The notes: generated by a model from the letters alone, not told the origin. A DNA stretch of 64,000 nt from an uncultured Candidatus Rokubacteria bacterium (GCA_963826115.1 CAWGVS010000010.1:64001-128000); one strand, 5' to 3'. Shown: positions 24,927 through 62,027, counted from the stretch's first letter. Numbers and translations: made by a program.

Positions 24927-24958
24927 CGACGCCATGTCCGCGCGGCGACACGCTGACG
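24927..24958. promoter_or_regulatory. Putative bEBP enhancer (UAS) copy
   Basis: CGACG-CCA-TGTCC-GCGCGG-CGACA-CGC-TGACG. Confidence 0.65.
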
Positions 24959-24979
24959 CCGGCGCGATCGGGCTGGGCG

Positions 24980-25696
24980 CTAGGCGGGGCGGAGGCGGAG
25001 CGCGGCCACGAGCGGCAGGTGGTCGGACGCGCGTCGGGCCAGGCGTGTCCGGTGGACGCGCAGCGATTCGCAGCGGAGCGTGTGGTCCCAGTAGATGCGG
25101 TCCAGCGCCCACAGCGGGAGGAACGCGGGGTGGGTCCGCCGGCGCCGCAGGCTGGTGAACTCCCGGCGGAGCGCCCGGCCCACGCGGCCCGGGAACCACT
25201 CGTTCAGGTCGCCGACCACGATCCGCGGGCCCGTGCGGTCGTCCCACAGGATGTGGCGCTCGACCAGCCACTTCACCTGCGCGGCGCGCTCGTGTCCTCG
25301 CAGGCCGAGGTGGACGTTGAAGACGTGCAGGACCTGCTCGCCGAGTCCGAGGTCGACCCGGATGCCCCCGCGGGCCTCGCGCGCCCGGACGGAGAGATCG
25401 AAGGTGACCACGCCGCGGAGCGGAAGCCGGGAGAGGACGGCGTTCCCGCACGCGCCGTCCTGGCGATGGACGGTAACGCCCGTGACCGGCTGCATGCCGA
25501 GGTCCTTCGCGAGGTGCTCGGCCTGCGCCTCGTAGATCTCCTGGACGCCGACGACGTCGGCGTCGACCTCCTGGAGCACGTCCGCGATCCGCCGCATGCT
25601 GACGCGTCCGTCGAGACCGCGACCTCGGTGGATGTTGTAGGTCGCCACGCGCAGCACGTCCGGCGCGGCGGCATGCGAGGCTCTCGACGCTGACAC
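24980..25696 (-). CDS. Endonuclease/exonuclease/phosphatase (EEP) family protein
   Basis: LRVATYNIH, DVVGVQE, VHLGL, VVGDLNE, LDRI, ASDHLP. Start approximate. Confidence 0.9.
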   Translation of the reverse strand: MSASRASHAAAPDVLRVATYNIHRGRGLDGRVSMRRIADVLQEVDADVVGVQEIYEAQAEHLAKDLGMQPVTGVTVHRQDGACGNAVLSRLPLRGVVTFDLSVRAREARGGIRVDLGLGEQVLHVFNVHLGLRGHERAAQVKWLVERHILWDDRTGPRIVVGDLNEWFPGRVGRALRREFTSLRRRRTHPAFLPLWALDRIYWDHTLRCESLRVHRTRLARRASDHLPLVAALRLRPA

Positions 25697-25777
25697 GGTG
25701 TCCCCGGTCCAGGATAGAGGCAGGCGGCGGGATCGGCAACGAAGCGGATGTCTCGCCGTTGCGCGAGGCCACGCGGG

Positions 25778-25809
25778 CGTCAGCGTGTCGTTCGCGCGAC
25801 ATCGCGTCG
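25778..25809. promoter_or_regulatory. Putative bEBP enhancer (UAS) copy
   Basis: CGTCA-GCG-TGTCG-TTCGCG-CGACA-TCG-CGTCG. Confidence 0.7.
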
Positions 25810-25862
25810 CCGGAAGCGACGCACCACCCTCGTAGGGTCCGCATCCCGACGACCCGGTCGCG

Positions 25863-25878
25863 TGGCATGGCGCTTGCG
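25863..25878 (+). promoter_or_regulatory. sigma54 -24/-12 promoter
   Basis: TGGCATGGCGCTTGCG, upstream of ORF 25890, rlpA and mlaC. Confidence 0.75.
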
Positions 25879-25889
25879 ACCACCCGGGC

Positions 25890-26219
25890 ATGATTCGCAT
25901 GAGCTCGAACCAGTCGCGCTCCGGCTCTTCAATGCATGTCCTCCGAATCGCGCCAGCGCCGACGGCGTCTGCGCTCGCGCTGTGCGTCGCCGGTCCGCGG
26001 CGCCGACCGCTTGCGCGGGTGGGCCTCCTCCGTCGCGCTCCGCGCCTCTCGGTCCGAGGCGAGCGGCGGGGGACGGAGTGGCGCGCGATCGCCAACGGGA
26101 TCGGTGGGGCCCTCGACGGCGTCCGGACGGCTCCCGTGGCCGGCGCTCCGCGCGAGTGGTGGCACGCGGAGTCGATCCCGGACGGGTGGCCGTGGGGTCC
26201 CGGCGCCGACTGCGCCTGA
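25890..26219 (+). CDS. Possible hypothetical protein (109 aa)
   Basis: ATG lies at the predicted sigma54 start site and the ORF fills the gap before rlpA. No recognisable domain. Confidence 0.3.
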   Translation: MIRMSSNQSRSGSSMHVLRIAPAPTASALALCVAGPRRRPLARVGLLRRAPRLSVRGERRGTEWRAIANGIGGALDGVRTAPVAGAPREWWHAESIPDGWPWGPGADCA

Positions 26220-26250
26220 CCGATGACACCGTGAGACCGGAGCGGCCGGT

Positions 26251-26676
26251 GTGACGCGTGCTCCGGCGTGCGCCCTCGTCCTGGGGATCCTGGCGCTGTG
26301 CGGGTGCGCGGTCAGCCGGCCGCCGGCGACACCCGTGACGGGCGAGGGTCGCGCGTCCGCGGAGCGCTCGGGCCCGCCGCGCACCGAGGTGGGCCTCGCG
26401 TCCTGGTACGGGGAGTTCCATCACGGTCAGCCGACGGCGTCGGGCGAGGTCTTCGACATGAGTGGGCTCACGGCCGCGCACCGGACCCTCCCGCTCGGCA
26501 CCCGGATCCGCGTGGTGAACGTCGACAACGGCCGGAGCGTCCAAGTGCGTATCAACGACCGGGGGCCGTACGTCGCCGGCCGGATCCTCGACCTGAGCCG
26601 GGGGGCGGCGCGCGCTCTCGACATGGTGGAGCGCGGCGTGGCGTGGGTCCGTGTCGACGTGATCGGGCTGCCGTGA
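26251..26676 (+). CDS. rlpA: RlpA-family lytic transglycosylase lipoprotein
   Basis: Lipobox LCGC, GLASWYG, TAAHRTLPLGT, VRINDRGP, ILDLSRGAA. Confidence 0.92.
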   Translation: MTRAPACALVLGILALCGCAVSRPPATPVTGEGRASAERSGPPRTEVGLASWYGEFHHGQPTASGEVFDMSGLTAAHRTLPLGTRIRVVNVDNGRSVQVRINDRGPYVAGRILDLSRGAARALDMVERGVAWVRVDVIGLP

Positions 26677-26708
26677 CCCGGCGTGCGGGTCGAGGAAGGG
26701 AGAACGAG

Positions 26709-27338
26709 ATGAGACCACGGGCATGGCTGTCCCTGGCGGCGGTCGTCGCGAGCGTGATGATGCTGGGGAGCGTCGCCGCCGCCGGGGTGCCGACCGACCA
26801 GCTGCGCGGCGCGACGGACCGGGTGCTGAAGGTCCTCCAGGACCCGGAGCTCAAGCAGCCGGCCAAGACGGACGCCCGCCGCCAGCAGATCCGCGCCATC
26901 GCGGACGAGATCTTCGACTGGGGGGAGACGGGCAAGCGCGCCCTGGCGCGGCACTGGCAGGGGCGCAACCCGGCCGAGCGCCAGGAGTTCTCGACGCTCT
27001 TCGCGGATCTGATCGAGCGCTCCTACGTCTCGAAGATCGAGCAGTACTCCGGCGAGCGCATCGCCTATGTCGGCGAGACGGTCGAGGGGGACCAGGCCAC
27101 CGTTCGGACGAAGCTCATCACGAAGTCGAACACCGAGATCCCCATCGACTATCGCATGCAGAAGGAGGGCGACCGCTGGCGCGCCTACGACGTCGTGATC
27201 GAGGGCGTCAGCCTGGTCTCGAACTACCGGACGCAGTTCAACCGGATCATCCAGCAGTCGGGCTACGCCGAGCTGGTGAACAAGCTCAAGGCCAAGCAGG
27301 AGGAGCTCCAGTTCGAGGCCGGCCAGGGCAAGGGCTGA
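26709..27338 (+). CDS. mlaC: MlaC/Ttg2D-family phospholipid-binding protein
   Basis: Signal peptide, RALARHW, WRAYDVVIEGVSLVSNYRTQF. Confidence 0.9.
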   Translation: MRPRAWLSLAAVVASVMMLGSVAAAGVPTDQLRGATDRVLKVLQDPELKQPAKTDARRQQIRAIADEIFDWGETGKRALARHWQGRNPAERQEFSTLFADLIERSYVSKIEQYSGERIAYVGETVEGDQATVRTKLITKSNTEIPIDYRMQKEGDRWRAYDVVIEGVSLVSNYRTQFNRIIQQSGYAELVNKLKAKQEELQFEAGQGKG

Positions 27339-27398
27339 GGGGCGCCGGCGGGACCGCGTGATGGAGGCGAGCGCGCGAGCCTCCTCGCAAGACGCGGT

Positions 27399-27818
27399 AT
27401 GACCAGGGCCCAGATCCATTTCATCCGGCAGTACACGCCGGTCCTGAAGGGGCAGGGCGGGGAGGCCTACGTCGCGCGCGCGTACATGGACCGGCAGCCG
27501 GGCGGCCTCTGGGAGGCGTGGCTCGTCTTCTTCTCGCTGCGGACGGGGCGGGCGATCGCCACCGACCGGGAGACCACGCAGGGGAAGCGGGAGCACGTCC
27601 TCTACTGGGCGACGGGCCTGGGCCCCACGTACCTTCAGGGGGCGCTCGAGCGGGCGCTGGTGCTCCAGCCGGAGGCCCAGCTCGCCCGCCGAATCGCGCG
27701 CGCGGAGCGCCAGGAGGCCTACGCCCTGCTCGAGGCGGAGGTCTACGCCGCGGCGACGGCGAGCGCGCTCCGGCGCGCGGCCGCCGCCCGGGATCGCGTG
27801 GTGCGAGGCGCCCGATGA
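27399..27818 (+). CDS. Hypothetical protein (139 aa)
   Basis: Protein-like (WEAWLVF, TDRETTQ, YWATGL..YLQGALERA). ATGA overlap with the next gene. Confidence 0.7.
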   Translation: MTRAQIHFIRQYTPVLKGQGGEAYVARAYMDRQPGGLWEAWLVFFSLRTGRAIATDRETTQGKREHVLYWATGLGPTYLQGALERALVLQPEAQLARRIARAERQEAYALLEAEVYAAATASALRRAAAARDRVVRGAR

Positions 27819-28741
27819 TTCCGCCGGCCGACGGCGGCGTCGAGAGGACGCCAGGCCCCCTCCCGTCGGCGGCGCCGCCAAGCGGGACGGGAGCCGAGCG
27901 CGGCGTGCGGCTCTGGCCTCGGAAGGGCGGCGGCGTGCTGGTGCGTGACGGGGAGGGCACCGGGGACGCGGTCCTCGGGATGCCGACGCAGGGGCAGCAC
28001 GTCGCACAGCTGTACACCGAGCCGGCGGTCCTGGCGCGCGCCGTGGCGCGGTTCGCCGCCGCAGGCCTTCGGTCCGGCGAGGCCGTCCTCCTCGTGGCGA
28101 CGGCCGGTCACCGTCCGGCGATCCTGCGCTGCCTCCGGGCCGTGGGGTACGAGCCCAGCGAGCTCGCGCGCGCCGGGCAGCTCGTCTTCCTGGACGCCGT
28201 CGACACGCTGGGGGCCCTCCTGGCGGACGGCGAGCCGGACCGCGCGCGTTTCCAGGCCGTGATCGGCGGCGCCGTCGACGCGGCCGAGGCCGCCGGCTAT
28301 CCGCGCGTGCGCGCCTTCGGAGAAATGGTGAACGTTCTCCGGCAGGCGCGCTTCGGCGCGGCGCTCCGGCTGGAAGCCCTGTGGGCCGAGCTGATCGCGG
28401 CGCGGCGGATCGCGCTCCTCTGTGGCTACTCCATCGACGCCTTCGATCCCTGGGCCTACGAGGGGGTCCTCCAGCGGGTCACCGCCACCCACTCCCACCT
28501 CGTGCCCGTCGAGGACTACGCCCTCCTCGGTCGGGCCGTCGCCCAGGCATACGGAGAGGTGTTCGGGGTCGGCTACGACGCCGGGCTCCTGCGCCGCATG
28601 TTCCTTGCCCAATACCCGAGGCCGACGGCGATGCCGGACGCGCAGGCGGCGATCCTCGCGGTTCAGGAGTTCGTGCCGGAAGCGGCGGCGGCGCTGCTCG
28701 ACCGGATCCGGCACCACTACCGGATCGCGGCGACGATCTGA
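27815..28741 (+). CDS. Stand-alone MEDS sensory domain protein
   Basis: HVAQLY, GLRSGEAVLLVATAGH, VRAFGEMVNVL, ALRLEALW, LLCGY. Alternative start 27980. Confidence 0.8.
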   Translation: MIPPADGGVERTPGPLPSAAPPSGTGAERGVRLWPRKGGGVLVRDGEGTGDAVLGMPTQGQHVAQLYTEPAVLARAVARFAAAGLRSGEAVLLVATAGHRPAILRCLRAVGYEPSELARAGQLVFLDAVDTLGALLADGEPDRARFQAVIGGAVDAAEAAGYPRVRAFGEMVNVLRQARFGAALRLEALWAELIAARRIALLCGYSIDAFDPWAYEGVLQRVTATHSHLVPVEDYALLGRAVAQAYGEVFGVGYDAGLLRRMFLAQYPRPTAMPDAQAAILAVQEFVPEAAAALLDRIRHHYRIAATI

Positions 28742-32193: not shown

Positions 32194-32200
32194 CGCGCCG

Positions 32201-35811: not shown

Positions 35812-35827
35812 TGCAAGCGGTGTGCCC
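35812..35827 (-). promoter_or_regulatory. sigma54 -24/-12 promoter of the gvp operon
   Basis: GGGCACACCGCTTGCA (minus strand). Confidence 0.72.
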
Positions 35828-36052: not shown

Positions 36053-36084
36053 CGACAGGATGTCGCCGAGACGACGCACTGTCG
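36053..36084. promoter_or_regulatory. Putative bEBP enhancer (UAS) copy
   Basis: CGACA-GGA-TGTCG-CCGAGA-CGACG-CAC-TGTCG. Confidence 0.72.
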
Positions 36085-37680: not shown

Positions 37681-37696
37681 TGCAAGGCGATTGCCA
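37681..37696 (-). promoter_or_regulatory. sigma54 -24/-12 promoter (mscS-like gene)
   Basis: TGGCAATCGCCTTGCA (minus strand). Confidence 0.75.
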
Positions 37697-37719: not shown

Positions 37720-37751
37720 AGAACGCTTGTCGCTCGCGCGACACCGTGTCG
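37720..37751. promoter_or_regulatory. Putative bEBP enhancer (UAS) copy
   Basis: agaac-GCT-TGTCG-CTCGCG-CGACA-CCG-TGTCG, between two divergent sigma54 boxes. Confidence 0.65.
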
Positions 37752-37782: not shown

Positions 37783-37798
37783 GGGCATGCGGCTTGCT
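37783..37798 (+). promoter_or_regulatory. sigma54 -24/-12 promoter (pafA)
   Basis: GGGCATGCGGCTTGCT, 14 nt before ATG 37813. Confidence 0.7.
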
Positions 37799-39395: not shown

Positions 39396-39427
39396 AGACA
39401 CGGCGTCGCCGGGGCGCCAGCGTGGCG
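39396..39427. promoter_or_regulatory. Putative bEBP enhancer (UAS) copy (degenerate)
   Basis: AGACA-CGG-CGTCG-CCGGGG-CGCCA-GCG-TGGCG. Confidence 0.5.
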
Positions 39428-42047: not shown

Positions 42048-42063
42048 AGCAAGGCACATGCCA
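42048..42063 (-). promoter_or_regulatory. sigma54 -24/-12 promoter
   Basis: TGGCATGTGCCTTGCT (minus strand). Confidence 0.8.
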
Positions 42064-42129: not shown

Positions 42130-42161
42130 CGCCAGCGCGTCGCGCGCTCGACACCGTGTCG
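42130..42161. promoter_or_regulatory. Putative bEBP enhancer (UAS) copy
   Basis: CGCCA-GCG-CGTCG-CGCGCT-CGACA-CCG-TGTCG. Confidence 0.68.
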
Positions 42162-48964: not shown

Positions 48965-48980
48965 TGCAACCGCGATTCCA
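48965..48980 (-). promoter_or_regulatory. sigma54 -24/-12 promoter (NTase-glgX-treY-ferritin operon)
   Basis: TGGAATCGCGGTTGCA (minus strand), 12 nt before ATG 48952. Confidence 0.7.
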
Positions 48981-49091: not shown

Positions 49092-49123
49092 CGACACGAT
49101 GTCGTGCGCGCGACATCGTGACG
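49092..49123. promoter_or_regulatory. Putative bEBP enhancer (UAS), near-consensus copy
   Basis: CGACA-CGA-TGTCG-TGCGCG-CGACA-TCG-TGACG. Confidence 0.75.
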
Positions 49124-49440: not shown

Positions 49441-49456
49441 AGCAAGGCACGTGCCA
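49441..49456 (-). promoter_or_regulatory. sigma54 -24/-12 promoter
   Basis: TGGCACGTGCCTTGCT (minus strand), consensus. Confidence 0.82.
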
Positions 49457-49531: not shown

Positions 49532-49574
49532 CGCCACCATGTCGTGCGCGCGCCGCCGTGTCATGCGCGAGACG
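49532..49574. promoter_or_regulatory. Putative bEBP enhancer (UAS) copy next to the kinase/bEBP operon
   Basis: CGCCA-CCA-TGTCG-TGCGCG-CGCCG-CCG-TGTCA-TGCGCG-AGACG. Confidence 0.62.
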
Positions 49575-49594
49575 CGTGATAGACTGAGGCCCCC

Positions 49595-51073
49595 GTGGGA
49601 CTGCGATTTCGCCTGGTCCTACTGCTCTTGGTGCCGATGACGCTCGTCGTCGCGGCCTTCGCGTACGTCTTGGTCCGGGAGCAGCGAGCCCAGCGGCGGG
49701 CGGAGTTCGACCTGCGCGTGAGCGTCACGAGCGCGGCGATTCGGCTCGCGGTGGAGAACGCGCTCCGGAGCGGGACCCTCGCCGACGTCGAGCGGCTGGC
49801 TCACGACCTGGTCGTGAAGCAGACGGAGATCGTGCGGATCCGGCTGCTGGATCGCGGCCTCGTCTCCCGCGTCGACGTGAACCTCTTCGCCGGGGGCGCC
49901 GGGGTGTCTCCCGACGAGCCCCGTCGGGTCCGCGACACGGGCCAGCCGACGGCCGTCGAGTACAAGGGCGGGGACACTCGCTTCCAGAGCGTGCTCCTGC
50001 CCGCCCGATCGGCCATCGACGGCGACGGCGTCCTGGAGGTCACCTTCCTGTCGGGCCGCCTGGAGGCCGATCTCCTCGGCGAGACCTACAAGATCGCGTT
50101 CCGTGGGGCGGTGCTGGTTCTCCTGTTGGGCCTGGTCGTGTGGGTCGCGTTCCAGCGCCTGGTGTTCCGTCCGGTCGCCGACCTCATGCAGGGGATCGAG
50201 CGCGTGGCGGCCGGGGAGGCGAGCGCGTCGGTTCCCGTGCGGCGCCGCGACGAGCTGGGTCAGGTGGCGGCGGCGTTCAACCGGATGGCCGAGCGGGTGC
50301 GGGAGGCCCGGCACCAGGTCGAGACCGAGACCGACCGGTCGCTCGAGCTCATGCGCCGGCTCCGGCAGACCGAGTCGCTGGCGATCGCCGGCAAGCTCTG
50401 CTCGAGCATCGCGCACGAGGTGGGGACGCCGCTCAACATCATCGCGGGGCGCGCGGAGCTCATGCTCCGAGCCCTTCCCAAGGACTCGCCACTCCGCGAG
50501 GACCTGAACGTCATCGTCACGCAGATCGACCGGATCTCGCGGATGATCCGGGCGGCCCTCGATCCCTTCCGGCAGCGCCAGCCCGAGCGGGCCGCGGTCG
50601 CGCCCGGTTCGGTGACCGAGGGGCTCCGGCCGCTCCTCCAGCACTTTGCCAAGAGCCGTGGCGTCACCCTGTCGGTGTCCATCCCGCCCGGGATCGCGCC
50701 GGTGTACGTCGACTCGGGCCATCTCCAGCAGGTCCTGATCAATCTCCTGACGAATGCCATCGAAGCCACCCCGTCCGGCGGGCGCGTCGAGGTGACGGCC
50801 GCGCCCAGCGCCAACGACGACCGGCCGGGCGTGGCCGTCGTCGTGCGGGACACGGGGTCGGGCATCTCGGAGGACGTCCTCCCCCGGATCTTCGATCCGT
50901 TCTTCAGCACGAAGCCGGCCCGCGACGGCGCGGGCCTCGGACTCGCGATCTGCCGAGACCTCGTCCGGTCGAACGGCAGCGACATCCAGGTTGCGAGCAA
51001 GCTCGGCGAAGGCACGGCCTTTACCGTCTGGCTGCCCGAGGCTGGGTCCGAAGGCAGGAAGGAGCAGTCATGA
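49595..51073 (+). CDS. HAMP-domain sensor histidine kinase (NtrB/AtoS-like)
   Basis: 2 TM, RRDELGQVAAAFNRM, SIAHEVGTPLN, QVLINLLTNAIEA, DTGSGI, FDPFFSTK, GLGL. Confidence 0.93.
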   Translation: MGLRFRLVLLLLVPMTLVVAAFAYVLVREQRAQRRAEFDLRVSVTSAAIRLAVENALRSGTLADVERLAHDLVVKQTEIVRIRLLDRGLVSRVDVNLFAGGAGVSPDEPRRVRDTGQPTAVEYKGGDTRFQSVLLPARSAIDGDGVLEVTFLSGRLEADLLGETYKIAFRGAVLVLLLGLVVWVAFQRLVFRPVADLMQGIERVAAGEASASVPVRRRDELGQVAAAFNRMAERVREARHQVETETDRSLELMRRLRQTESLAIAGKLCSSIAHEVGTPLNIIAGRAELMLRALPKDSPLREDLNVIVTQIDRISRMIRAALDPFRQRQPERAAVAPGSVTEGLRPLLQHFAKSRGVTLSVSIPPGIAPVYVDSGHLQQVLINLLTNAIEATPSGGRVEVTAAPSANDDRPGVAVVVRDTGSGISEDVLPRIFDPFFSTKPARDGAGLGLAICRDLVRSNGSDIQVASKLGEGTAFTVWLPEAGSEGRKEQS

Positions 51074-52437
51074 GATCCCGGATCCTGGTGGTGGACAACG
51101 ACGCCGACATGGTGGCGCTCCTGCGCCGTCACCTCGAGGTGGAGGGCTGGTCGGTGACGGCCGTGACGACCGGCGAGGACGCCCATGCCGCGCTGGCGCG
51201 CGAGGAGTACGCGGTCGTCCTGACCGACCTGGTCATGGAGCCGGTGGATGGGCTGGCCGTGCTGCGCGAGGCCCAGAAGGTCCAGCCGCGAGCGCGCGTC
51301 GTCCTCATGACGGCGTTCGGCAGTCTCGAGAGCGCGATCGACGCCATGCGCCAGGGTGCGTACGACTACCTCATGAAGCCGTTCAAGCTGCCGGAGCTGT
51401 CGGTGGTCGTCAACCGCGCCGTCGAGGACCAGCAACTGCGGGAGGAGAATCGCCGGCTCCGGGCCGAGGTCGAGCGCCGGTACAGCTTCGACAACATGCT
51501 CGGCCGCTCGAAGGCGATGCAGTCCGTGTTCGACCAGATCCGGGCGGTGGCGGACACCGACGCGCCGGTCCTCCTGCTCGGGGACAGCGGGTCGGGAAAG
51601 GAGCTGGTCTCGCGGGCCATCCACTGGCACAGCGGTCGCCGGGACGGGCCGTTCGTGGCCGTCAACTGCGCCGCGATTCCCGAGACCCTGCTGGAGTCCG
51701 AGCTCTTCGGCCACGAGCGGGGCGCCTTCACCGGCGCCGACCGGAAGCGCCGGGGCCTGTTCGTCGAAGCCCAAGGGGGCACGCTGCTGCTCGACGAGAT
51801 CGCTGAGATGCCGCAGTCGCTCCAGGTCAAGCTCCTGCGGGCCCTGCAGGACCGCGTGGTGCGGCCGGTCGGCGGGAACGAGGAGATCAAGGTGGACCTG
51901 CGCCTGATCAGCGCGACCAACCGCGACCTCCCGACGTTCGTGCGTCAGGCGAAGTTCCGGGAGGACCTCTACTACCGACTGGCGGTCATCCCGATCCGGA
52001 TCCCGAGCCTCCGGGAGCGGCCGGAGGACATCCCGCTTCTCGCCGAGCACTTCCTGAAGCGCGCGGCCGGGGGCATGGGCAAGGAGATCGAAGGCTTCGA
52101 CGAAGAGGCGCTCAAGTGGCTCCACGAGCACACGTGGCCGGGCAACGTCCGCGAGCTGGAGAACGTCGTGGAGCGCGCGGCGACGCTCGCCCGCGGGCGA
52201 CTCATCACGCGGGACGACCTCCGGATCGAGTTCACGCCGGGCTCCAGCAGCGAGCTGGGCGTGCGTCCCACGCTGGCCGAGGTCGAGACCCAGTACATCC
52301 GCCGAATCCTCGACGAGGTCCGGGGTGACAAGCGGGCGGCGGCCCGCATCCTCGGGATCAGCGTGCGGACGCTCCAGCGGATGCAGGCCAACCTGGTGCG
52401 GGTGGGTCCCGGCTTGCCTGAACCCCCGCAGCCGTGA
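51070..52437 (+). CDS. sigma54-dependent response regulator (NtrC/AtoC-family bEBP)
   Basis: REC domain, GDSGSGKE, ESELFGHERGAFTGA, LLLDEI, FREDLYYRL, WPGNVREL, Fis-type HTH (AARILGISVRTL). ATGA overlap. Confidence 0.95.
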   Translation: MRSRILVVDNDADMVALLRRHLEVEGWSVTAVTTGEDAHAALAREEYAVVLTDLVMEPVDGLAVLREAQKVQPRARVVLMTAFGSLESAIDAMRQGAYDYLMKPFKLPELSVVVNRAVEDQQLREENRRLRAEVERRYSFDNMLGRSKAMQSVFDQIRAVADTDAPVLLLGDSGSGKELVSRAIHWHSGRRDGPFVAVNCAAIPETLLESELFGHERGAFTGADRKRRGLFVEAQGGTLLLDEIAEMPQSLQVKLLRALQDRVVRPVGGNEEIKVDLRLISATNRDLPTFVRQAKFREDLYYRLAVIPIRIPSLRERPEDIPLLAEHFLKRAAGGMGKEIEGFDEEALKWLHEHTWPGNVRELENVVERAATLARGRLITRDDLRIEFTPGSSSELGVRPTLAEVETQYIRRILDEVRGDKRAAARILGISVRTLQRMQANLVRVGPGLPEPPQP

Positions 52438-52439: not shown

Positions 52440-52455
52440 TGGCACGGGCCTTGCT
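52440..52455 (+). promoter_or_regulatory. sigma54 -24/-12 promoter
   Basis: TGGCACGGGCCTTGCT right after the bEBP stop, 12 nt before ATG 52468. Confidence 0.82.
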
Positions 52456-52467
52456 CCTCGAGGGGGT

Positions 52468-54615: not shown

Positions 54616-55054
54616 GGGTCCCGAACCGCGCCGGGACGTCCGGGCCGCCGGCGAACTCGCCCGTCAGCTGATCACCGGACTCCAGCGTCAGCACCAGCGC
54701 GCCCCCGCCGACCAGGTCGAAGAAGAGCCCCGAACGGGTGAGGCGTCCCTCGCGGCGGACGGTGTCCGCGACGCCGCCGTCGACGAAGGTGACGTGGGCC
54801 ACCACCGTCGACGTCCCGACTTCTGGCGCGATGATTACCTCCGCAGCCCCGTTCCGTCCGCTGTCGCCCGCGACCCACCGCCCGGTCCAGGCCCCGCCCA
54901 GGCGGGCCGCGGCCTCGGGCGCCCCGCTGGCGGCGGCGGAGCGCGACCCGGCGGGCCCGACTTCCGCGAGGGCCGCCAGCAGGACGACCGCGGCCACGGC
55001 CAGGAGGCGGCCGGTGCGGAGCACGACCGTGGTCCCACCCCCTCGCGCCATCAT
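54587..55054 (-). CDS. Secreted hypothetical protein
   Basis: Signal-like hydrophobic N-terminus, LGGAWTGRW beta domain. Confidence 0.6.
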   Translation of the reverse strand: MMARGGGTTVVLRTGRLLAVAAVVLLAALAEVGPAGSRSAAASGAPEAAARLGGAWTGRWVAGDSGRNGAAEVIIAPEVGTSTVVAHVTFVDGGVADTVRREGRLTRSGLFFDLVGGGALVLTLESGDQLTGEFAGGPDVPARFGTLTLSRRARG

Positions 55055-55744: not shown

Positions 55745-55993
55745 TCACGCGGCCCCGGTGAGGCCCGTCTCGCTCGCCAGGAGCTCCCGCACGACCCACA
55801 GCCGGCCGCACGTGCCGCAGAGCACCCCGGGGCCCAGGCGACGCGTCACGAGGCCGTTGCAGTTGGGGCAGCGATCGCTGACGTCGCTGGTGCGATCGTA
55901 GGTGACACGGGCGTCAGACCAGCGCCGAGCCCGCTGGAGCAGCGTGTCTCGGCCGAACTCCTCGGAATGACGGGGACGCCGCTGGCGTGGCAT
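55745..55993 (-). CDS. Small Zn-ribbon protein
   Basis: AGGAG RBS, CPNC...CGTC. Downstream of a sigma54 box. Confidence 0.6.
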   Translation of the reverse strand: MPRQRRPRHSEEFGRDTLLQRARRWSDARVTYDRTSDVSDRCPNCNGLVTRRLGPGVLCGTCGRLWVVRELLASETGLTGAA

Positions 55994-56052: not shown

Positions 56053-56068
56053 AGCAAGCTCTGTGCCG
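56053..56068 (-). promoter_or_regulatory. sigma54 -24/-12 promoter
   Basis: CGGCACAGAGCTTGCT (minus strand). Confidence 0.75.
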
Positions 56069-56133: not shown

Positions 56134-56165
56134 GGACACGCTGTCGCCTTCCGGACACCGTGTCG
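56134..56165. promoter_or_regulatory. Putative bEBP enhancer (UAS) copy
   Basis: GGACA-CGC-TGTCG-CCTTCC-GGACA-CCG-TGTCG. Confidence 0.72.
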
Positions 56166-56241: not shown

Positions 56242-56667
56242 TCAGGCGGCCTCGAGGGAGATGTCGCGCGGGGACTCCCGAGCGGGGACCAGGGACTCGC
56301 GCCGGGCGCGGCGCTCGGCTTCTCCCTGGCAGTCCCGGCAGCGCTGGGCGAACGGGAGCGCGCGGAGGCGCGGCACCCCGATGAAGCCGTCGCACTCCTG
56401 GCAGAAGCCGTACCGTCCCTCGGACAGCCGCACGAGCGCGTCCTGGATCTGCACGACCTGCCGAGTGCGCCGGTCCATCAGGGCGACCTGGATCTCCGTG
56501 TGGAGGGTCTCCGCGGCGTGGACGGATATGTCGGTCAGACTCGTGCTCTCCGTGGTCCGGCTCTCGGAGACCACGGCGCGAAGAGACCCCTGCAGCCGTG
56601 CCAGCTCGGTTTCCAGGAATCCTTCGAGCTCGCCGATGATGCGCCGGTCCAGCTTCGTTGGGCTCAT
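56242..56667 (-). CDS. TraR/DksA C4-type zinc-finger protein
   Basis: IQDALVRLSEGRYGFCQEC..IGVPRLRALPFAQRCRDCQ. RBS AAGGAG. Confidence 0.88.
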   Translation of the reverse strand: MSPTKLDRRIIGELEGFLETELARLQGSLRAVVSESRTTESTSLTDISVHAAETLHTEIQVALMDRRTRQVVQIQDALVRLSEGRYGFCQECDGFIGVPRLRALPFAQRCRDCQGEAERRARRESLVPARESPRDISLEAA

Positions 56668-57188
56668 GCCATGCTCCTTCCGCCCGCGTCCTGAGCGGGC
56701 ATGCGATCGGAGGCCGGCCGTCGGGCCGGCGCCCCTCCCGGGCCGCCGAGAAACGCCTCGACCGCGCCTGTCAGGGCGGGCAGGACGGCCCGCTCGAGGG
56801 CGTCGGCGACGTCGTCGATGATGCGATTCACGAGACCCTCGACGCGGCCGCCCAGCCGTTCCCACGAGGCTGACGCCATGGTGGGCCCGGAGCCGCCCGC
56901 CTCCAGGCGCGCCGGGATGCGAGTGACCGCCTCCCGCCCCGCCGCCGCGACCCAGGGCCCGGCGTCCCGCTCGCTCTCGATCTCCCGGGCGAGACGTCGG
57001 CCGACCGCGGCGCCGAGGAGCACCGCGCCCAGCAGGCTCGAGACGGGGTAGCGCTCGACGTAGGTCTGCCACTGCATCGCGTCACCCGCCTTCCCGCGCA
57101 GCGCGCTCGCGGTTCGTGAGATGGAAGCCCGCGTCGCGTCGATGTCGCGACGCAGATCCTCGATGTCTACGCTCCGTGCCGGATCCAT
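56664..57188 (-). CDS. DUF3618-like protein
   Basis: DLRRDIDATRASISRT..L, then YVERYP plus a TM helix. Confidence 0.7.
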   Translation of the reverse strand: MDPARSVDIEDLRRDIDATRASISRTASALRGKAGDAMQWQTYVERYPVSSLLGAVLLGAAVGRRLAREIESERDAGPWVAAAGREAVTRIPARLEAGGSGPTMASASWERLGGRVEGLVNRIIDDVADALERAVLPALTGAVEAFLGGPGGAPARRPASDRMPAQDAGGRSMA

Positions 57189-57559
57189 TCCGCATCCTTC
57201 CGCAGCTCGCGACGGGTTTCCTCGGCGAGCCGCTGGTGTTGGAGCCGCCGCACCGCCAGCGCGCCGGCGCCCACACCGAGGATCCCCAGGCCCGCGCCCA
57301 CGAGGGCAAAGCCCTCCGGCGCCGACCCGACGAGCTCGCCGACCCACAGCCCCACGCCGAGCAGGAGAAAGGCCAGGCCCACGCTCGCCGCGAGGGCGCC
57401 GACCGTCAGCAGGCCTGCCGTCCTCGCGAGCGCCACGGCATCCCTCGCGAGCTCGGCCTTCAGGAGCGCGAGTCGCTGGTCGACCAGGCGCCCGACATCG
57501 GCAAGAAGCCGGAGCCCGAGCTCCGCGAAGCTCGCCGACTGACCGTTCCGGTGGATCAC
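57167..57559 (-). CDS. Phage_holin_3_6 (YqjE/DUF1469)-like membrane protein
   Basis: LLADVGRLVDQRLALLKAEL, 2 TM, ETRRELRKDAEWI. Confidence 0.8.
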   Translation of the reverse strand: MIHRNGQSASFAELGLRLLADVGRLVDQRLALLKAELARDAVALARTAGLLTVGALAASVGLAFLLLGVGLWVGELVGSAPEGFALVGAGLGILGVGAGALAVRRLQHQRLAEETRRELRKDAEWIRHGA

Positions 57560-57586
57560 CGGCGGGCCTCGCGCGTTCGCCCGCGC

Positions 57587-57970
57587 CTAGCGCCGGCCCG
57601 CGGAGCTCAGCCAGCCGAGCACGAGCCCGGCACCGGCGGCGATGCAAAGGGCCGTCACGGGCTGCTGGCGCGTGTACCCGACGACGTCGTGCCGCACCTT
57701 CTCCATGCCGCCGTCCCGGTATTCGGCGACCTTGTCACGGGCCTGCTGCACCGCGTCGCCCAGGTACTCCCGGGCGCCGTCGACGTAATCCTTGGTCTGC
57801 TGGATCGTGTCCTGGACGTACTCCTTCGCCTCGGCGGCGTAGTCCCTCATCTCGCGCCCGGATTCCTGAGCGCACTGTCGTGTCGTGTCGGCGAAGTCGC
57901 GCGCCTCAGACTTGGCCCACTCGCCCATCGATTCGTGTGCGATGCCATCCCAGCGAACGCGGTCTTCCAT
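57587..57970 (-). CDS. DUF883/ElaB-YqjD-like tail-anchored protein with LEA-like helical repeats
   Basis: Amphipathic repeats (AKEYVQD/TKDYVDG/AREYLGD), C-terminal YTRQQP..IAAGAGLVLGWL..RR. RBS GGAGG. Confidence 0.8.
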   Translation of the reverse strand: MEDRVRWDGIAHESMGEWAKSEARDFADTTRQCAQESGREMRDYAAEAKEYVQDTIQQTKDYVDGAREYLGDAVQQARDKVAEYRDGGMEKVRHDVVGYTRQQPVTALCIAAGAGLVLGWLSSAGRR

Positions 57971-58011: not shown

Positions 58012-58027
58012 AGCAAGTCATGTGCCA
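58012..58027 (-). promoter_or_regulatory. sigma54 -24/-12 promoter
   Basis: TGGCACATGACTTGCT (minus strand). Confidence 0.82.
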
Positions 58028-58112: not shown

Positions 58113-58144
58113 CGTCACCGCGTCGTGCGCCCGACAGCGTGGCA
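58113..58144. promoter_or_regulatory. Putative bEBP enhancer (UAS) copy
   Basis: CGTCA-CCG-CGTCG-TGCGCC-CGACA-GCG-TGGCA, between divergent sigma54 boxes. Confidence 0.58.
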
Positions 58145-58210: not shown

Positions 58211-58226
58211 AGGCACATGCCTTGCA
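58211..58226 (+). promoter_or_regulatory. sigma54 -24/-12 promoter
   Basis: AGGCACATGCCTTGCA. Confidence 0.78.
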
Positions 58227-58286: not shown

Positions 58287-58568
58287 ATGAACACGAAGAA
58301 GCCGACCGATAAGCCCATCGAGCGCCGGCCCGACGACTCGATCGACCAGCGTCAGGGACCGTACGATCCGGCGAGGCCGGGCAGCCCGGGTCAGTCCGAG
58401 GCGTCCGAGGGTCGGAAGGACGTCGGGAAGCCGGAAGGCCGTTCGCCGGGCAAGCCGGCCTCCAAGCCCGGCGAGCGCGGCCCTGGCCAGGATGGGCGGA
58501 GCGACCGGGACGCGGGACGCCCGGTGCAGCTGGACGACCGCCGCGAGGACGAGTCGGCCCTGCGCTGA
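58287..58568 (+). CDS. Hydrophilic, probably disordered 93-aa protein (hydrophilin-like)
   Basis: AAGGAGG RBS. Rich in G/P/D/E/K/R with almost no hydrophobic residues. Confidence 0.75.
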   Translation: MNTKKPTDKPIERRPDDSIDQRQGPYDPARPGSPGQSEASEGRKDVGKPEGRSPGKPASKPGERGPGQDGRSDRDAGRPVQLDDRREDESALR

Positions 58569-58647: not shown

Positions 58648-58800
58648 TCAGACCCGTCCGGTGAGGAACAGGACCAGGACGACGAGCAGCACGACGCCCA
58701 GCGTCCCGCTCGGATAGTAGCCCCAGCCGCTGCTGTATGGCCACGCCGGCAACGCTCCGACGAGCAGCAGAATCAGCAGGACGAGAAGGATGGTTGGCAA
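58648..58800 (-). CDS. DUF3309-family small membrane protein (50 aa)
   Basis: GGAGGTG RBS, TTG start. TILLVLLILLLVGALPAWPYSSGWGYYPSGTLGVVLLVVLVLFLTGRV. Confidence 0.88.
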   Translation of the reverse strand: MPTILLVLLILLLVGALPAWPYSSGWGYYPSGTLGVVLLVVLVLFLTGRV

Positions 58801-58881: not shown

Positions 58882-59187
58882 CTACTGGATCTTGATGTTG
58901 TTGACGACGTCGTTGACGCCCGACACCTCGCGGGCGAGCTGCGTGGCGCGCGCCTTGATGGTCTCGCTCTCGACGTTGCCCGTGAGGTAGACGGTGCCCT
59001 TGTTGGTGTCGACGTCGACCTTGGTCAGGGTCGACGGTTTCTCGGCCGCGAGCTTGCTCTTCACCGTGGCCGTGATCTTCGCGTCGTCCACGTTCTCCCC
59101 GGCCGATTTGCCGGTCATCGACGTGCAGCCGGCGGTGAACGCCATCAGCAGCGTCAGCACCAGCATGGAGCGGAGCAGGTATCGCAT
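58882..59187 (-). CDS. BON-domain (OsmY-like) lipoprotein
   Basis: Lipobox TAGC, DDAKITATVKSKL, VDVDTNKGTVYLTG, VSGVNDVVNNI. Confidence 0.92.
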   Translation of the reverse strand: MRYLLRSMLVLTLLMAFTAGCTSMTGKSAGENVDDAKITATVKSKLAAEKPSTLTKVDVDTNKGTVYLTGNVESETIKARATQLAREVSGVNDVVNNIKIQ

Positions 59188-59226: not shown

Positions 59227-59469
59227 CTACGGCCGCGGTGTGCCGGCCCGCTCCGACGGGGCCATCGCCGCGTCGATCTCGCGCAGCCGGCGCGCCACCT
59301 CGTCCTCCGCGTCGCGCCTGGCCCAGCCGTACTTCTCCTGCAGCTTGCCGACGAGCTTGTCGCGCTTTCCCGCGATCACGTCGAAGTCGTCGTCGGTGAG
59401 CTTGCCCCACCACTCCTTCACCTGGCCACGCATCTGCTTCCACTTGCCTTCCACGATGTCCGTGTTCAT
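59227..59469 (-). CDS. csbD: CsbD-family general stress protein
   Basis: MNTDIVEGKWKQMRGQVKEWWGKLTDDD..IAGKRDKLVGKLQEKYG. RBS AAGGAGG. Confidence 0.93.
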   Translation of the reverse strand: MNTDIVEGKWKQMRGQVKEWWGKLTDDDFDVIAGKRDKLVGKLQEKYGWARRDAEDEVARRLREIDAAMAPSERAGTPRP

Positions 59470-59538: not shown

Positions 59539-59554
59539 AGCAACAAGGCTGCCT
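59539..59554 (-). promoter_or_regulatory. sigma54 -24/-12 promoter (csbD-BON-DUF3309)
   Basis: AGGCAGCCTTGTTGCT (minus strand). Confidence 0.65.
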
Positions 59555-59665: not shown

Positions 59666-59697
59666 TGTCATGGTGGCGTCGAGGCGACACCCTGACG
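59666..59697. promoter_or_regulatory. Putative bEBP enhancer (UAS) copy
   Basis: TGTCA-TGG-TGGCG-TCGAGG-CGACA-CCC-TGACG. Confidence 0.55.
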
Positions 59698-59725
59698 AAA
59701 CACACGCATCCTCCGCGCCGCGGCA

Positions 59726-59741
59726 TGGCACTGCCCTCGCT
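59726..59741 (+). promoter_or_regulatory. Possible sigma54 promoter (weaker -12)
   Basis: TGGCACTGCCCTCGCT. Confidence 0.45.
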
Positions 59742-59830
59742 CCATCGACGGAAAAAGCCCGCGTGGGCAGAGGGAGACACCGATGCGAGGGCCTTGGAGG
59801 GACACGTCGATCGCGCGAGGCAGGCACCCC

Positions 59831-59971
59831 ATGATCGCGCCCGTCGCGCGCGCCGCCACCCAGGACGCGCGGGAATCCACGACTCTCACCGCGGCCGTGG
59901 TGGGCTTCGTCGTTGCCCTCGTGACCTCGGTGGGCGTGTCGGTCGCGTGCGTCGCCTATCTGCACTGGTAG
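59831..59971 (+). CDS. Possible 46-aa single-TM microprotein
   Basis: MIAPVARAATQDARESTTLTAAVVGFVVALVTSVGVSVACVAYLHW. Alternative start 59783. Confidence 0.4.
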   Translation: MIAPVARAATQDARESTTLTAAVVGFVVALVTSVGVSVACVAYLHW

Positions 59972-60041
59972 GCGGTTGAGCAGGGAGGGAGTTTCGCCCC
60001 ACGCGGTGACGTCACCGACGGCAAGTGGCGTGTCGACGCGC

Positions 60042-61913
60042 TCAGCGTGCCGAGGCAAGCTCGATTGCGTCGGGCGTGGCCGCGCGCTGCAGCGGCGCCA
60101 GCTCCTGTAGCTGCGCGCATGCCTCGGCGAGCGTGGTCGTCACCCGATCGGCGCCCGCCGTGACCATGGCCTGACGCGCGCTCTCGTCACCGCCGTCGAC
60201 GCCCCACCATCCCACGACGATCGGCAGGTCCGGAAAGCGTGCCCGGAGACGCTTGCACAGGTGTCGGAGGTGCAGGGGATGGCCCGCGCCGGCCAGCGCG
60301 CCGATCACGACCGCGACGGGCGTCTCCTCCTCGACGCGCGTGACGGCCTCGCTGACCAGGAGGTCGGGTGACGCGATGCTCACCGCGAACCGTGTCGGGT
60401 CGAGGCGCTGCTTCAGCATGAGAAGCGCGACCTCGTCCGCCTCTTCCTGGGCGGGCAGCCCGAGAATGGACGTGGCGGGCCGCGTCGGCGGCTCGGCCAG
60501 GGACGCCGGCAGCTCGAGGTCCTCGACGATCTGACGGGTCACGCGCTCGACGTAGCGCACGTCCTCGTCCGTGATTCGGCCGCGCTCGTGGTCGCGCCGC
60601 GCGTGACTCAGGGCAGGCACGAGGACCTCGTCGAAGACGTCGTGGCCGGCCTGTGCGGCGACGTACTCCTGGACCAGGGCCGCGCCCTCGTTCTCGTCCC
60701 GGGCCACGAGCCGCTGGTAGTAGCTCCGGGCGGGTCCCATGACCGGCTCGTCCGACATGAGCACGGACAGGATCTCGAGGTCGGGGATGTACTTGGCGAG
60801 GACGACGAGGCAGACGGTGAGCGGCGTCGCCAGCGCCAGCCCGACGGCGCCCCACACCCAGGTCCAGAAGGCGACTGCCAGCAGGAGCGCGACCTGGGAG
60901 ACGCCCGCGCTCTGGCTGTAGAAGTACGGCTCCAGGATGAAGCCGGTGAAGACCTCCAGCCCGACGAAGAGCCCGGCGATCAGAATGGGCTGGAGCCAGC
61001 CATCGAAGACGGCCAGCCCCGCCAGCGATACCAAGAGCGCGCCCACCCAGGGGCCGACGTACGGGATGAACCGGAGGACCCCGGCCAGCGCGCCCCAGAG
61101 GAAGGCGTACGGAAGACCGATCACGAGCGCGCCGACCGTCACCCCGAGCCCGAAGGCGCCATTGATCAGGCACTGGCGCGTCAGGTAGTGGGTGATCCGC
61201 TGGGCGGCCTCGTCCATGGCCTTGGTGGTGGTGGCGATCCGACCGAACCCGATGACCCGGATCACGCGGTCCCGGAGCTGGAGCCGCTCCAGGAGCATGA
61301 AGATCACGAGGACCAGCACGAGACCGACGTTTGCCAGCGCCTCCAGCAGGACCGGCAGCGACCACAGCGTCGACGACGGTGACTTCACGACCACCGGCAC
61401 CGGCTTGTCGGCCGGCTTGACGGGCTTGTCCTCCTTCTGGAGCTCCTCGACCACCTCCTTGGTGGCCGTCTGCACCTTCTCGATGACGCTCCCGCGGCTG
61501 GCGCCGCGGATCGCGGCGATCTTCTGCTTGAGATGGTCGCGGTAGATCGGGATCTCCTCGCCGAGCCCGGCGGCCTGCAGTCCCACCGCCCACGCGAAGA
61601 CGCCCAGCGCGGAGAACGCCAGGAGCACCACCAGGATCACGGCGACCACGCGCGGCAACCATCGCTCGAACGAGCGGACGATCGGGTTCAGGACGAAGGT
61701 GAGGAGGCTGGCGACCGCGACGGGGACCAGGAACACCCGCCCGAGATAGAGCGCGCCCACCGTCATGAGGACACCGGCGAGCAGGATGACGGGGCGGACG
61801 CCGCGGAGATTCGCCTGGGGCGAACGCGAGCTCCGGGCATGGGACCCCGGCGCCGGATCCCTGGCGACATTCCCGAGCGTGGGGTAACCCGAGATCGAGC
61901 GCGTGTCCGTCAC
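60042..61913 (-). CDS. AI-2E family transporter with C-terminal cytoplasmic (B12-binding-like) domain
   Basis: LRDRVIR, LRFIPYVGP, ALATPLTVCLVV, YYQRLVARD, FDEVLVPAL, RLRARFPDLPIVVGWW. GTG 61913 in frame. Confidence 0.88.
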   Translation of the reverse strand: MTDTRSISGYPTLGNVARDPAPGSHARSSRSPQANLRGVRPVILLAGVLMTVGALYLGRVFLVPVAVASLLTFVLNPIVRSFERWLPRVVAVILVVLLAFSALGVFAWAVGLQAAGLGEEIPIYRDHLKQKIAAIRGASRGSVIEKVQTATKEVVEELQKEDKPVKPADKPVPVVVKSPSSTLWSLPVLLEALANVGLVLVLVIFMLLERLQLRDRVIRVIGFGRIATTTKAMDEAAQRITHYLTRQCLINGAFGLGVTVGALVIGLPYAFLWGALAGVLRFIPYVGPWVGALLVSLAGLAVFDGWLQPILIAGLFVGLEVFTGFILEPYFYSQSAGVSQVALLLAVAFWTWVWGAVGLALATPLTVCLVVLAKYIPDLEILSVLMSDEPVMGPARSYYQRLVARDENEGAALVQEYVAAQAGHDVFDEVLVPALSHARRDHERGRITDEDVRYVERVTRQIVEDLELPASLAEPPTRPATSILGLPAQEEADEVALLMLKQRLDPTRFAVSIASPDLLVSEAVTRVEEETPVAVVIGALAGAGHPLHLRHLCKRLRARFPDLPIVVGWWGVDGGDESARQAMVTAGADRVTTTLAEACAQLQELAPLQRAATPDAIELASAR

Positions 61914-61926
61914 TCGCGTGCATCGG

Positions 61927-61942
61927 TGCGAAACGCATGCCG
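61927..61942 (-). promoter_or_regulatory. Probable sigma54 promoter
   Basis: CGGCATGCGTTTCGCA (minus strand), 13 nt before GTG 61913. Confidence 0.55.
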
Positions 61943-61995
61943 GCCGCTTTCTAGCCCTTGGCCGCGGTCCACGCGACGCGAATGTCGCCGATTCG

Positions 61996-62027
61996 CGTCG
62001 TCGTGTCGCCACCACGACACCGTGGCG
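61996..62027. promoter_or_regulatory. Putative bEBP enhancer (UAS) copy
   Basis: CGTCG-TCG-TGTCG-CCACCA-CGACA-CCG-TGGCG, centred between divergent sigma54 boxes. Confidence 0.68.

Follow-up and report, generated by a model that had tools for sequence, protein, structure and literature searches.

In a 64,000-nt window of the genome of an uncultured Candidatus Rokubacteria bacterium (GCA_963826115.1 CAWGVS010000010.1:64001-128000; 72.8% G+C, part of a 605-kb contig), a 32-bp palindromic element of the form CGACA-N3-TGTCG-N6-CGACA-N3-TGTCG, with 20 specified bases, occurs twelve times and accompanies promoters of the sigma-54 type. We consider it probable that this element is the enhancer, or upstream activating sequence (UAS), of a bacterial enhancer-binding protein (bEBP) of the NtrC family that would drive a cluster of sigma-54 promoters in front of stress and dormancy genes. 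That some bEBP binds the element is, judging from its sequence and setting, very likely; that the binder is the bEBP encoded in the same window at 51070-52437 is a proposal, based on proximity, towards which we lean only slightly. The enhancer had been put forward as a new one in an earlier note on this DNA, and the proposal stands insofar as position, symmetry, multiplicity and promoter association are all those expected of a bEBP UAS, the novelty being confined to the sequence of the half-sites.

The twelve copies located in the earlier note are all present, and all keep the 5-3-5-6-5-3-5 spacing free of gaps. They differ from the pattern at one of the 20 specified bases (36053..36084 and 49092..49123), at two (25778..25809, 42130..42161 and 56134..56165), at three (24927..24958, 37720..37751 and 61996..62027) or at four (39396..39427, 49532..49563, 58113..58144 and 59666..59697). 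A pattern scan allowing up to three mismatches returned eight matches in the window, every one of them among these twelve, and none in any of 100 dinucleotide-preserving shuffles. On a weight matrix built from the twelve copies and their reverse complements, the copies score 27.1-42.5 bits, with 49092 at the top, and 17.0-40.3 bits when each is left out of the matrix in turn. The next-best position in the window, at 15.5 bits, is copy 49532 shifted by 19 bp, and the maximum reached in 30 Markov-simulated 64-kb sequences is 16.5 bits. Because of this clean gap in score, we take it that no copy in the window had been missed before; the matrix scan found none in positions 1-24,900. Genes were called by codon statistics, their starts were then corrected from promoter and ribosome-binding-site context, and small open reading frames (ORFs) were added. 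With the starts so corrected, all twelve copies lie in non-coding DNA, as had been claimed, although such DNA accounts for just 5,682 of the 64,000 bases (8.9%; p about 2e-13). An unbiased count of all dyads with arms of 4 and 5 bases and gaps of 0-14 points to the same element, as GACA-N3-TGTC ranks first (7 intergenic and 0 coding occurrences), TGTC-N8-GACA is also top-ranked (6 and 0), and TGTCG-N6-CGACA and CGACA-N3-TGTCG each occur 4 times in intergenic and 0 times in coding DNA. The pattern and matrix statistics exclude a chance origin of the element.

Conservation is found only in the four 5-base half-sites (CGACA or TGTCG), and the spacers and flanks vary freely. Column by column, the information is confined to 32 bp and drops to background exactly at both ends, so that the flanks lie at background; no conservation is seen at positions -10 to -6 and 39-43, where the additional half-sites of an array with a 19-bp period would fall. 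Within the half-sites G2, C4 and A5 and their mirror positions are near-invariant, and the third base of the outer half-sites is variable (A in 6, T in 4 and C in 2). The inner pair, at positions 9-13 and 20-24, is better kept than the outer one, with 10 mismatches in 120 bases versus 23 in 120 (Fisher p 0.023). The element can be read as two abutting 13-bp dyads, 19 bp apart from centre to centre, or alternatively as a 5-N6-5 dyad of 16 bp that has one more half-site on either side, 3 bp off. Outside the twelve copies, sub-units of 13 or 16 bp occur at chance-level frequency and in coding DNA, one case excepted, and on this ground independent sites of either size were rejected and the whole four-half-site element is taken as the functional unit. 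The exception is a lone 13-bp unit at 25691-25703 (TGACACGGTGTCC, 13.8 bits), the only intergenic one in the window, which precedes by about 20-30 bp the start region of an Exo_endo_phos (phosphatase-family) gene at 24980-25657, at a place with no sigma-54 box.

Being palindromic and intergenic, the element shares two features with repetitive extragenic palindromic (REP) sequences and with terminators, and it could in principle be a non-regulatory repeat, an RNA hairpin, a terminator, or a chance pattern in GC-rich DNA. We regard this whole class of explanations as barely credible. Only the half-sites are conserved, spacers and flanks being free; mismatches are not compensated on the partner arm, and the stems would be just 5 bp long. 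No T-run follows any of the twelve copies in the flanks inspected, a terminator scan limited to 48850-49650 was negative, and there is no Rfam match in the window. Moreover, the copies stand upstream of genes at fixed distances from promoters rather than at 3' ends, and chance is excluded by the shuffle and matrix statistics given above. RNA hairpin, REP element and chance pattern were accordingly rejected.

The promoters are the second half of the argument. A search for the sigma-54 consensus TGGCAC-N5-TTGC found 15 boxes with at most one mismatch, where 2.10 were expected and no more than 6 were reached in 100 shuffles. Fourteen of the 15 are intergenic, and each of these points into a gene; the fifteenth, at 51625 within the bEBP gene, is probably a chance occurrence. 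Three more boxes, with two mismatches each (37783, 48980 and 59554), stand at the right place for promoters of pafA, the trehalose operon and csbD, respectively. The base that follows the box is T or A in 15 of the 17 boxes used, in a genome with 27% A+T, and this matches the extended consensus TTGC(T/A) as quoted in PMC9765219 and the 'w' that the sigma-54 consensus carries at that position in PMC12754779. Twelve of the 17 boxes are followed by a leader of 12-70 nt to the ATG, mostly with a GGAGG-type ribosome-binding site. At the other five (22820, 37696, 37783, 48980 and 52440), the start codon comes 14-16 nt past the -12 GC, so that the transcripts are predicted to be leaderless or nearly so; the spans concerned are 22820-22850, 37667-37696, 37783-37813, 48952-48980 and 52440-52468. 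In the PexR system of Myxococcus xanthus, a leaderless mRNA is tied to a sigma-A promoter (PMC12754779).

Boxes and copies go together. A copy of the element lies 23-225 bp upstream of 11 of the 14 intergenic boxes that have no more than one mismatch, and conversely 11 of the 12 copies have, at 23-225 bp, a box with two mismatches or fewer that is directed away from them. Counted by intergenic region, a box with at most one mismatch is also present in 10 of the 12 regions that bear a copy (Fisher p 8e-7, 53 regions). The gaps between copy and box that had been listed before were reproduced in 13 of 14 cases (53, 55, 65, 66, 66, 66, 75, 85, 23, 31, 111, 111 and 225 bp), a second gap of 53 bp could not be found, and extra weak boxes add gaps of 28, 32 and 226 bp. 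Measured from the centre of the element to the -12 GC, the distances of the 14 pairs are 53, 58, 61, 83, 85, 95, 96, 96, 96, 105, 115, 141, 141 and 255 bp. The eight pairs at 83-115 bp step by about 10 bp, with a Rayleigh R of 0.86 at 10.3-10.5 bp and a Monte-Carlo p of 0.003, values to be read with the knowledge that this class was picked after the data had been seen and that four of its eight distances are 95-96. The proposed helical phasing of element and promoter thus holds for eight of 14 pairs, in a class defined post hoc, and is clear in that class only. If the start site lies some 12 nt past the GC, the preferred class places the centre of the element at about -95 to -128. The UAS of a bEBP typically stands some 70-200 bp from the start site of a -24/-12 (GG-N10-GC) promoter and usually comprises two or more dyad or tandem sites for dimers. 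No AT-rich element resembling a site for integration host factor (IHF) is evident between element and promoter, where the DNA has 16-38% A+T, and such an element was rejected for this reason. The description of several copies as lying between divergent promoters was borne out for 37720, 58113 and 59666, all of which sit between divergent boxes, and since the element is palindromic one copy can serve two divergent promoters. At 58113 the two boxes, 58027 and 58211, are at distances that differ by 19 bp, or about two helical turns.

A candidate for the binder is encoded in the middle of the cluster. The gene at 51070..52437 (+) specifies an NtrC-family response-regulator bEBP of 455 aa, with a receiver domain (Response_reg, 8.8e-23), a Sigma54_activat domain (1.2e-70) with an intact GAFTGA motif, AAA_lid_14, and the helix-turn-helix domain HTH_8 (2.4e-8), and its residues 4-438 align with full-length NtrC4 of Aquifex (4l4u) with an E value of 1e-107. 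Ahead of it, and overlapping it by 4 bases, is the gene of a sensor histidine kinase with HAMP, HisKA and HATPase_c domains (49595..51073, +), its presumed partner. The window encodes no other DNA-binding bEBP, this one is complete, and none of the twelve copies is more than 26 kb from it on either side; two copies, including the best, 49092, precede its operon, and we take it as the candidate. Its score stays below every curated NCBIfam cut-off, namely those for AtoC (454.9 versus 714), NtrC (429.9 versus 558.6), the PEP-CTERM regulator (429.5 versus 502.6), ZraR (408.1 versus 760), GlrR (395 versus 763), NifA (364.7 versus 528.85), NtrX (356.5 versus 600) and LuxO (351.5 versus 800), and as no equivalog cut-off is reached we refer to it as an unnamed response regulator of the NtrC family. 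In clusters built at 90% identity, the bEBP belongs to a group of 32 sequences from several sources and the kinase stands alone in its own cluster, which argues that the regulator is much better conserved, or more constrained, than the sensor.

The best-matching bEBP loci listed (80, at 39-50% identity, from many phyla) are paralogues, and no orthologue was found among these matches. In the 1.21 Mb around these 80 other NtrC-family bEBP genes there is no copy of the element, no site above 14 bits and no match to the relaxed form GNCA-N3-TGNC-N8-GNCA-N3-TGNC; these flanks serve as a negative control for the motif and not as a measure of its conservation, and they indicate that the motif is not a generic companion of NtrC-family bEBP genes. 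One of the loci (L024, from an unrelated metagenome-assembled genome of 71% G+C) has at 12330-12400, just past a tRNA-Leu gene and ahead of one for a glyoxalase-like protein, a cluster of TGTCG and CGACA half-sites that includes one perfect TGTCG-N6-CGACA. It was set aside as probable chance, given that its spacing differs and that no sigma-54 box is present.

Several observations weigh against the enhancer interpretation, or against parts of it, and we list them together. Copy 39396 has no sigma-54 box that we could find, and the best copy, 49092, faces just a two-mismatch box at 141 bp. The boxes at 22820, 40246 and 52440 are good and yet have no copy of the element. Among the 19 intergenic regions of at least 90 bp the association of element and box is significant at p 0.03 only, and part of it must therefore come from the need of both features for long spacers. 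Three pairs have the GC at just 53-61 bp from the centre of the element, a short distance for a loop. Taken together at a period of 10.5 bp, the 14 pairs give an R of 0.42 (p 0.09, not significant), the best period for the full set being 11.5 bp (Monte-Carlo p 0.008 over periods of 9.5-11.5). Finally, what ties the element to the local bEBP is proximity, in a window that is one part of a 605-kb contig.

The last of these points, together with the boxes that lack a copy, bears on a rival explanation in which the element is indeed a bEBP enhancer but the bEBP that binds it is a different one, encoded outside the window, and the local kinase and regulator serve other promoters such as 52440, 40246 and 22820. 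Because three good boxes have no copy, either a second activator or action from a remote site must exist, so that more than one activator may well be needed, and the local system might itself act on the perfect box at 52440, which lies 3 bp past the bEBP stop codon. Where sigma-54 promoters abound in a genome, as in Desulfovibrio vulgaris, bEBPs are numerous (PMC4641369), and the contig extends well beyond the window. Set against this are the position of the local bEBP as the sole one in 64 kb with every copy no more than 26 kb away, the presence of two copies, the best one included, in the intergenic space before its own operon, and the general tendency of regulators to adjoin their targets. 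We judge a binder from outside the window unlikely, though deserving of serious attention, and keep the local bEBP as the preferred candidate.

The intergenic stretch that separates the trehalose operon from the kinase gene is 642 bp long and contains the two copies 49092 and 49532 as well as an ORF of 80 aa on the opposite strand (49170-49412, -). Copy 49532 ends 31 bp before the GTG start codon of the kinase gene at 49595, so that a copy does abut the kinase-bEBP operon, as described in the earlier note, and this arrangement had been taken to suggest autoregulation. In the sense of activation through sigma-54 this was not borne out, as the operon has no convincing sigma-54 box, the sole candidate being a two-mismatch box at 49350 inside the opposite-strand ORF. 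What can be seen by eye is an extended -10-like element of the form TGnTAGACT (TGATAGACT, 49577-49585) that ends 9 bp before the GTG, with the right outer half-site of copy 49532 falling at its -35 position; a stricter, automated scan of 48850-49650 for sigma-70 promoters and terminators returned no match. Because copy 49532 overlaps a sigma-70-like promoter, the arrangement suggests autorepression, and repression of the kinase-bEBP operon is a more plausible outcome of binding there than activation.

Comparison with known systems indicates that the architecture as such has precedents in LuxO, PexR and NifA and that, as far as the sequences tell, the novelty is confined to the half-site. The LuxO sites upstream of the qrr small RNA genes of Vibrio are 13-bp 5-3-5 palindromes of the form TTGCA-W3-TGCAA that occur once or twice, 14-30 bp apart, at -89 to -120 from sigma-54 start sites (PMC11443567). 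LuxO is likewise an NtrC-family bEBP of the receiver type, and its sites share with ours the 13-bp 5-3-5 unit, the CA-N3-TG core and the position. They differ in the half-site (TTGCA rather than CGACA) and in spacing, which here is fixed at 19 bp between centres in twelve of twelve copies; furthermore, the local bEBP, at 351.5 bits, stays below the cut-off of 800 set for the NCBIfam LuxO model, and the targets here are stress proteins rather than small RNAs. The UAS of PexR consists of three tandem repeats of CACCG-n6-CGGTG, established by electrophoretic mobility shift assay, chromatin immunoprecipitation and mutagenesis, and PexR sites also overlap and repress sigma-A promoters, at ahpC and near the protein's own, possibly leaderless, pexR gene (PMC12754779). 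Tandem 5-N6-5 palindromes that act as a bEBP enhancer of stress genes parallel the inner dyad of our element, and repression near the regulator's own gene parallels copy 49532 before the kinase-bEBP operon. PexR, however, senses through a GAF domain, in contrast to the receiver domain of the bEBP here, its half-site reads differently, and three full dyads stand against one full 5-N6-5 dyad with single flanking half-sites.

For NifA, the UAS consensus is TGT-N10-ACA, placed some 100 bp or farther upstream of sigma-54 promoters (PMC2820453), and the inner dyad of the element is a special case of it, exact in 6 of the 12 copies. The window has no nif genes, however, and no NifA, the bEBP scoring 364.7 on a model whose cut-off is 528.85; the bEBP here also has a receiver in place of GAF, and the element has two further conserved half-sites. 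The closest functional analogue is Nla28 of M. xanthus, a starvation-induced bEBP of the two-component type that directly drives many sigma-54 promoters (PMC9765219). The likeness lies in a large stress regulon under one bEBP, in targets for starvation and spore resistance, and in the use of tandem short half-sites, but the Nla28 site is an 8-bp direct repeat, CT(C/G)CG(C/G)AG, with variable spacers and in mostly intragenic promoters, and as a motif it is unrelated. In D. vulgaris, most sigma-54 promoters lie no more than 100 nt from the nearest enhancer-binding-protein site, and some such sites have no sigma-54 promoter (PMC4641369); the position of the element here agrees with that survey and with the LuxO sites. 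In a search confined to the running text of papers we found none that reports this half-site sequence for a bEBP, and a similar motif may have been published as a figure logo or in a supplement.

A further comparison is with the enhancer of NtrC at glnAp2, where two dyad sites some 100-140 bp upstream, spaced by about three helical turns, bind dimers of a protein with receiver, AAA+ and Fis-type helix-turn-helix domains. It is on these dimers that the active oligomer forms, and sigma-70 promoters overlapped by the sites are repressed from them. The half-sites differ from those described here, the local bEBP scores 429.9 against the NtrC cut-off of 558.6, and the targets in the window are not nitrogen genes.

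The layout of the inner dyad bears on another reading, according to which the element is bound by a factor other than a bEBP, for instance a dimer of the CRP/FNR type on the inner TGTCG-N6-CGACA or a repressor, which would modulate these promoters, with the sigma-54 activator acting from elsewhere or from solution. A 5-6-5 layout is typical of CRP/FNR sites, the inner half-sites are those better kept (10 versus 23 mismatches per 120, p 0.023), and copy 39396 and the lone unit at 25691 lie right at gene starts where there is no sigma-54 box. In the form TGTC-N8-GACA the inner dyad also resembles the consensus of MrpC of Myxococcus, a likeness that a literature search did not confirm. Pfam assignments for 61 + 12 ORFs of the window revealed no gene for a regulator of the CRP/FNR type or for another suitable one, however, and sigma-54 promoters need a bEBP in any case. 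The preferred position at -95 to -128, with its 10-bp steps, is where one expects an activator that has to contact the polymerase, and the 5-N6-5 layout is no argument for CRP because the bEBP PexR uses such dyads. A binder of another kind is, in our opinion, improbable, and clearly more so than a bEBP from elsewhere in the genome.

If the element is the enhancer of the local bEBP, a mechanism can be proposed. A signal perceived by the membrane kinase at 49595-51073 would lead to phosphorylation of the receiver domain of the bEBP, dimers of which would use their Fis-type HTH_8 domains to bind the four half-sites and assemble there into an active AAA+ ring. Looping of about 70-130 bp of DNA would then bring the ring to closed complexes of sigma-54 RNA polymerase, and its ATP hydrolysis would open the promoter; at a copy that overlaps a sigma-70-type promoter, such as 49532, the same binding would repress. 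With regard to how the half-sites are occupied, we slightly favour two side-by-side dimers on the 13-bp units, as with LuxO, over a PexR-like dimer on the central dyad with two flanking, half-occupied dimers, and the latter arrangement is kept in play because the inner half-sites are better conserved. More broadly, and as a tentative suggestion that we hold with some doubt, sigma-54 and a single two-component activator could run a general stress and dormancy programme in this organism, as sigma-S and sigma-B do in model bacteria, with a fixed 32-bp enhancer that nucleates the ring, serves divergent promoters and doubles as an operator for autorepression, and with some of the transcripts leaderless.

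The genes behind the paired promoters, assigned with Pfam and NCBIfam, appear from their families to form a stress and dormancy set, with trehalose synthesis, gas vesicles, CsbD, BON, DUF3309, encapsulated ferritin, PafA, a DksA-like protein, and small hydrophilic or membrane peptides. Such genes belong to general-stress or stationary-phase regulons in model bacteria. A literature search on sigma-54 together with CsbD found no paper. At the left end of the cluster, the centre of copy 24927 lies 96 bp from the -12 GC of a perfect TGGCAC-N5-TTGC box at 24846..24860 (-), ahead of a gene for a YegS/DAGK-like lipid kinase (23841-24818), and copy 25778 is centred 83 bp from the GC of a one-mismatch box at 25863..25877 (+) that precedes DPBB/RlpA-like, MlaC-like and MEDS genes (26251-28741), the MEDS gene being MEDS/RsbA-like. 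Copy 36053 is the most distant, at 255 bp from the GC of the one-mismatch box of the gas-vesicle operon (35813..35827, -). This box leads into a 68-aa ORF, two Gas_vesicle (GvpA/J-type) genes and the remainder of the gas-vesicle cluster, which runs down to 28778 and holds a PAS kinase and receiver, three GvpF/L genes, gvpG, a third Gas_vesicle-family gene and gvpK. The sensor kinase of this cluster (32653-34798, -) is split over two frames, with PAS in 33326-34798 and HisKA and HATPase_c in 32653-33609, so that there are either two genes here or one broken by a frameshift or by an error of assembly. A perfect GC-rich inverted repeat, GCGTTGCGCGGGG AA CCCCGCGCAACGC (within 35890-35990, -), separates copy 36053 from box 35827; it lies downstream of a 514-aa gene and looks like the terminator hairpin of that gene.

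The 514-aa protein itself (36123-37667), functionally unassigned, is encoded behind a one-mismatch box at 37682..37696 (-), with its GTG 15 nt past the GC, and shares copy 37720 with the divergent sigma-54-like box at 37783..37797 (+; two mismatches), the two GCs being at 53 and 61 bp from the centre of the copy. The latter box precedes pafA (37813-39165), whose ATG follows 16 nt past the GC and whose product exceeds the curated equivalog cut-off (562.8 versus 551.3 bits); no Pup or proteasome gene is evident beside it by Pfam. This genome combines the use of sigma-54 with a Pup-protein ligase, PafA, whose gene appears to be placed under a sigma-54-like box. Copy 39396, the one with no box, lies 46 bp upstream of a gene for 55 aa (39182-39349, -). 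Copy 42130 is at 96 bp from the GC of a one-mismatch box (42049..42063, -) that leads to an M48 peptidase gene (41294-41983, with its ATG at 41983 and AGGAG ahead of it) and a PsiE-like gene (40749-41276). The best copy, 49092 (42.5 bits), precedes the trehalose operon, and the GC of the weak, two-mismatch box at 48966..48980 (-) is 141 bp away from it; the ATG comes 14 nt past that GC, and the operon (42389-48952) comprises genes for a sugar-1-P nucleotidyltransferase, GlgX and TreY (951 bits versus a cut-off of 498.65), followed by an encapsulated-ferritin-like (EncFtn) gene.

Copy 49532 is centred 105 bp from the GC of a perfect box at 49442..49456 (-), which reads into the Cys-rich 80-aa ORF at 49170-49412 with GAAGGAGG as the ribosome-binding site. 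Farther on, copy 56134 is at 95 bp from the GC of a one-mismatch box (56054..56068, -) that precedes an 82-aa Cys4 ORF (55745-55993) and a PCC-domain gene (55051-55683). Copy 58113 is common to two divergent boxes, a perfect one at 58013..58027 (-; 115 bp), ahead of genes for a 127-aa helical membrane-anchored protein and for holin-X-like and DksA-like proteins (56242-57970), and a one-mismatch one at 58211..58225 (+; 96 bp), ahead of a gene for a highly hydrophilic protein of 93 aa (58287-58568). Copy 59666 similarly stands 141 bp from the GC of the weak, two-mismatch CsbD box (59540..59554, -), which leads to CsbD (59227-59469), BON (58882-59187) and DUF3309 (58648-58800) genes, and 58 bp from that of a one-mismatch box at 59726..59740 (+) before a 62-aa ORF (59783-59971). 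Copy 61996, finally, is 85 bp from the GC of a one-mismatch box at 62083..62097 (+), behind which a hydrophobic peptide of 25 aa is encoded (62131-62208).

Two of the boxes that have no copy are perfect. The one starting at 52440 is placed ahead of the gene for a stand-alone receiver domain (52468-52908), and upstream of it, within the bEBP gene, no copy of the element is found, the best match being a weak one of 11 bits at 51105. The other, at 40232-40246, has a good ribosome-binding site behind it and leads to a Gly/Ala-rich protein of 246 aa with no family match (39446-40186); it too has no copy upstream. Positions 1-16336 of the window, which encode a GMC oxidoreductase, a DyP-like peroxidase, a 952-aa protein of the animal-haem-peroxidase family and a 1,334-aa TPR protein, hold neither a copy of the element nor a sigma-54 box with at most one mismatch.

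In sum, what we have is a well-supported prediction, and the regulatory element that it concerns is of an ordinary kind. If it is true, it would provide a ready-made regulon of an uncharacterised activator, with twelve sites and up to 14 promoters within 37 kb, in a lineage known from assembled contigs only, and it would mean that sigma-54 controls here a gene set typical of general stress and desiccation, and not nitrogen, motility or envelope functions. A regular palindromic site with a single geometry, shared between divergent promoters and combined with two promoter types, one with a long leader and one with the start 14-16 nt past the -12 GC, would also make a clean system, suited to the study of how dimer sites nucleate the ring and of how distance and helical face affect promoter output.

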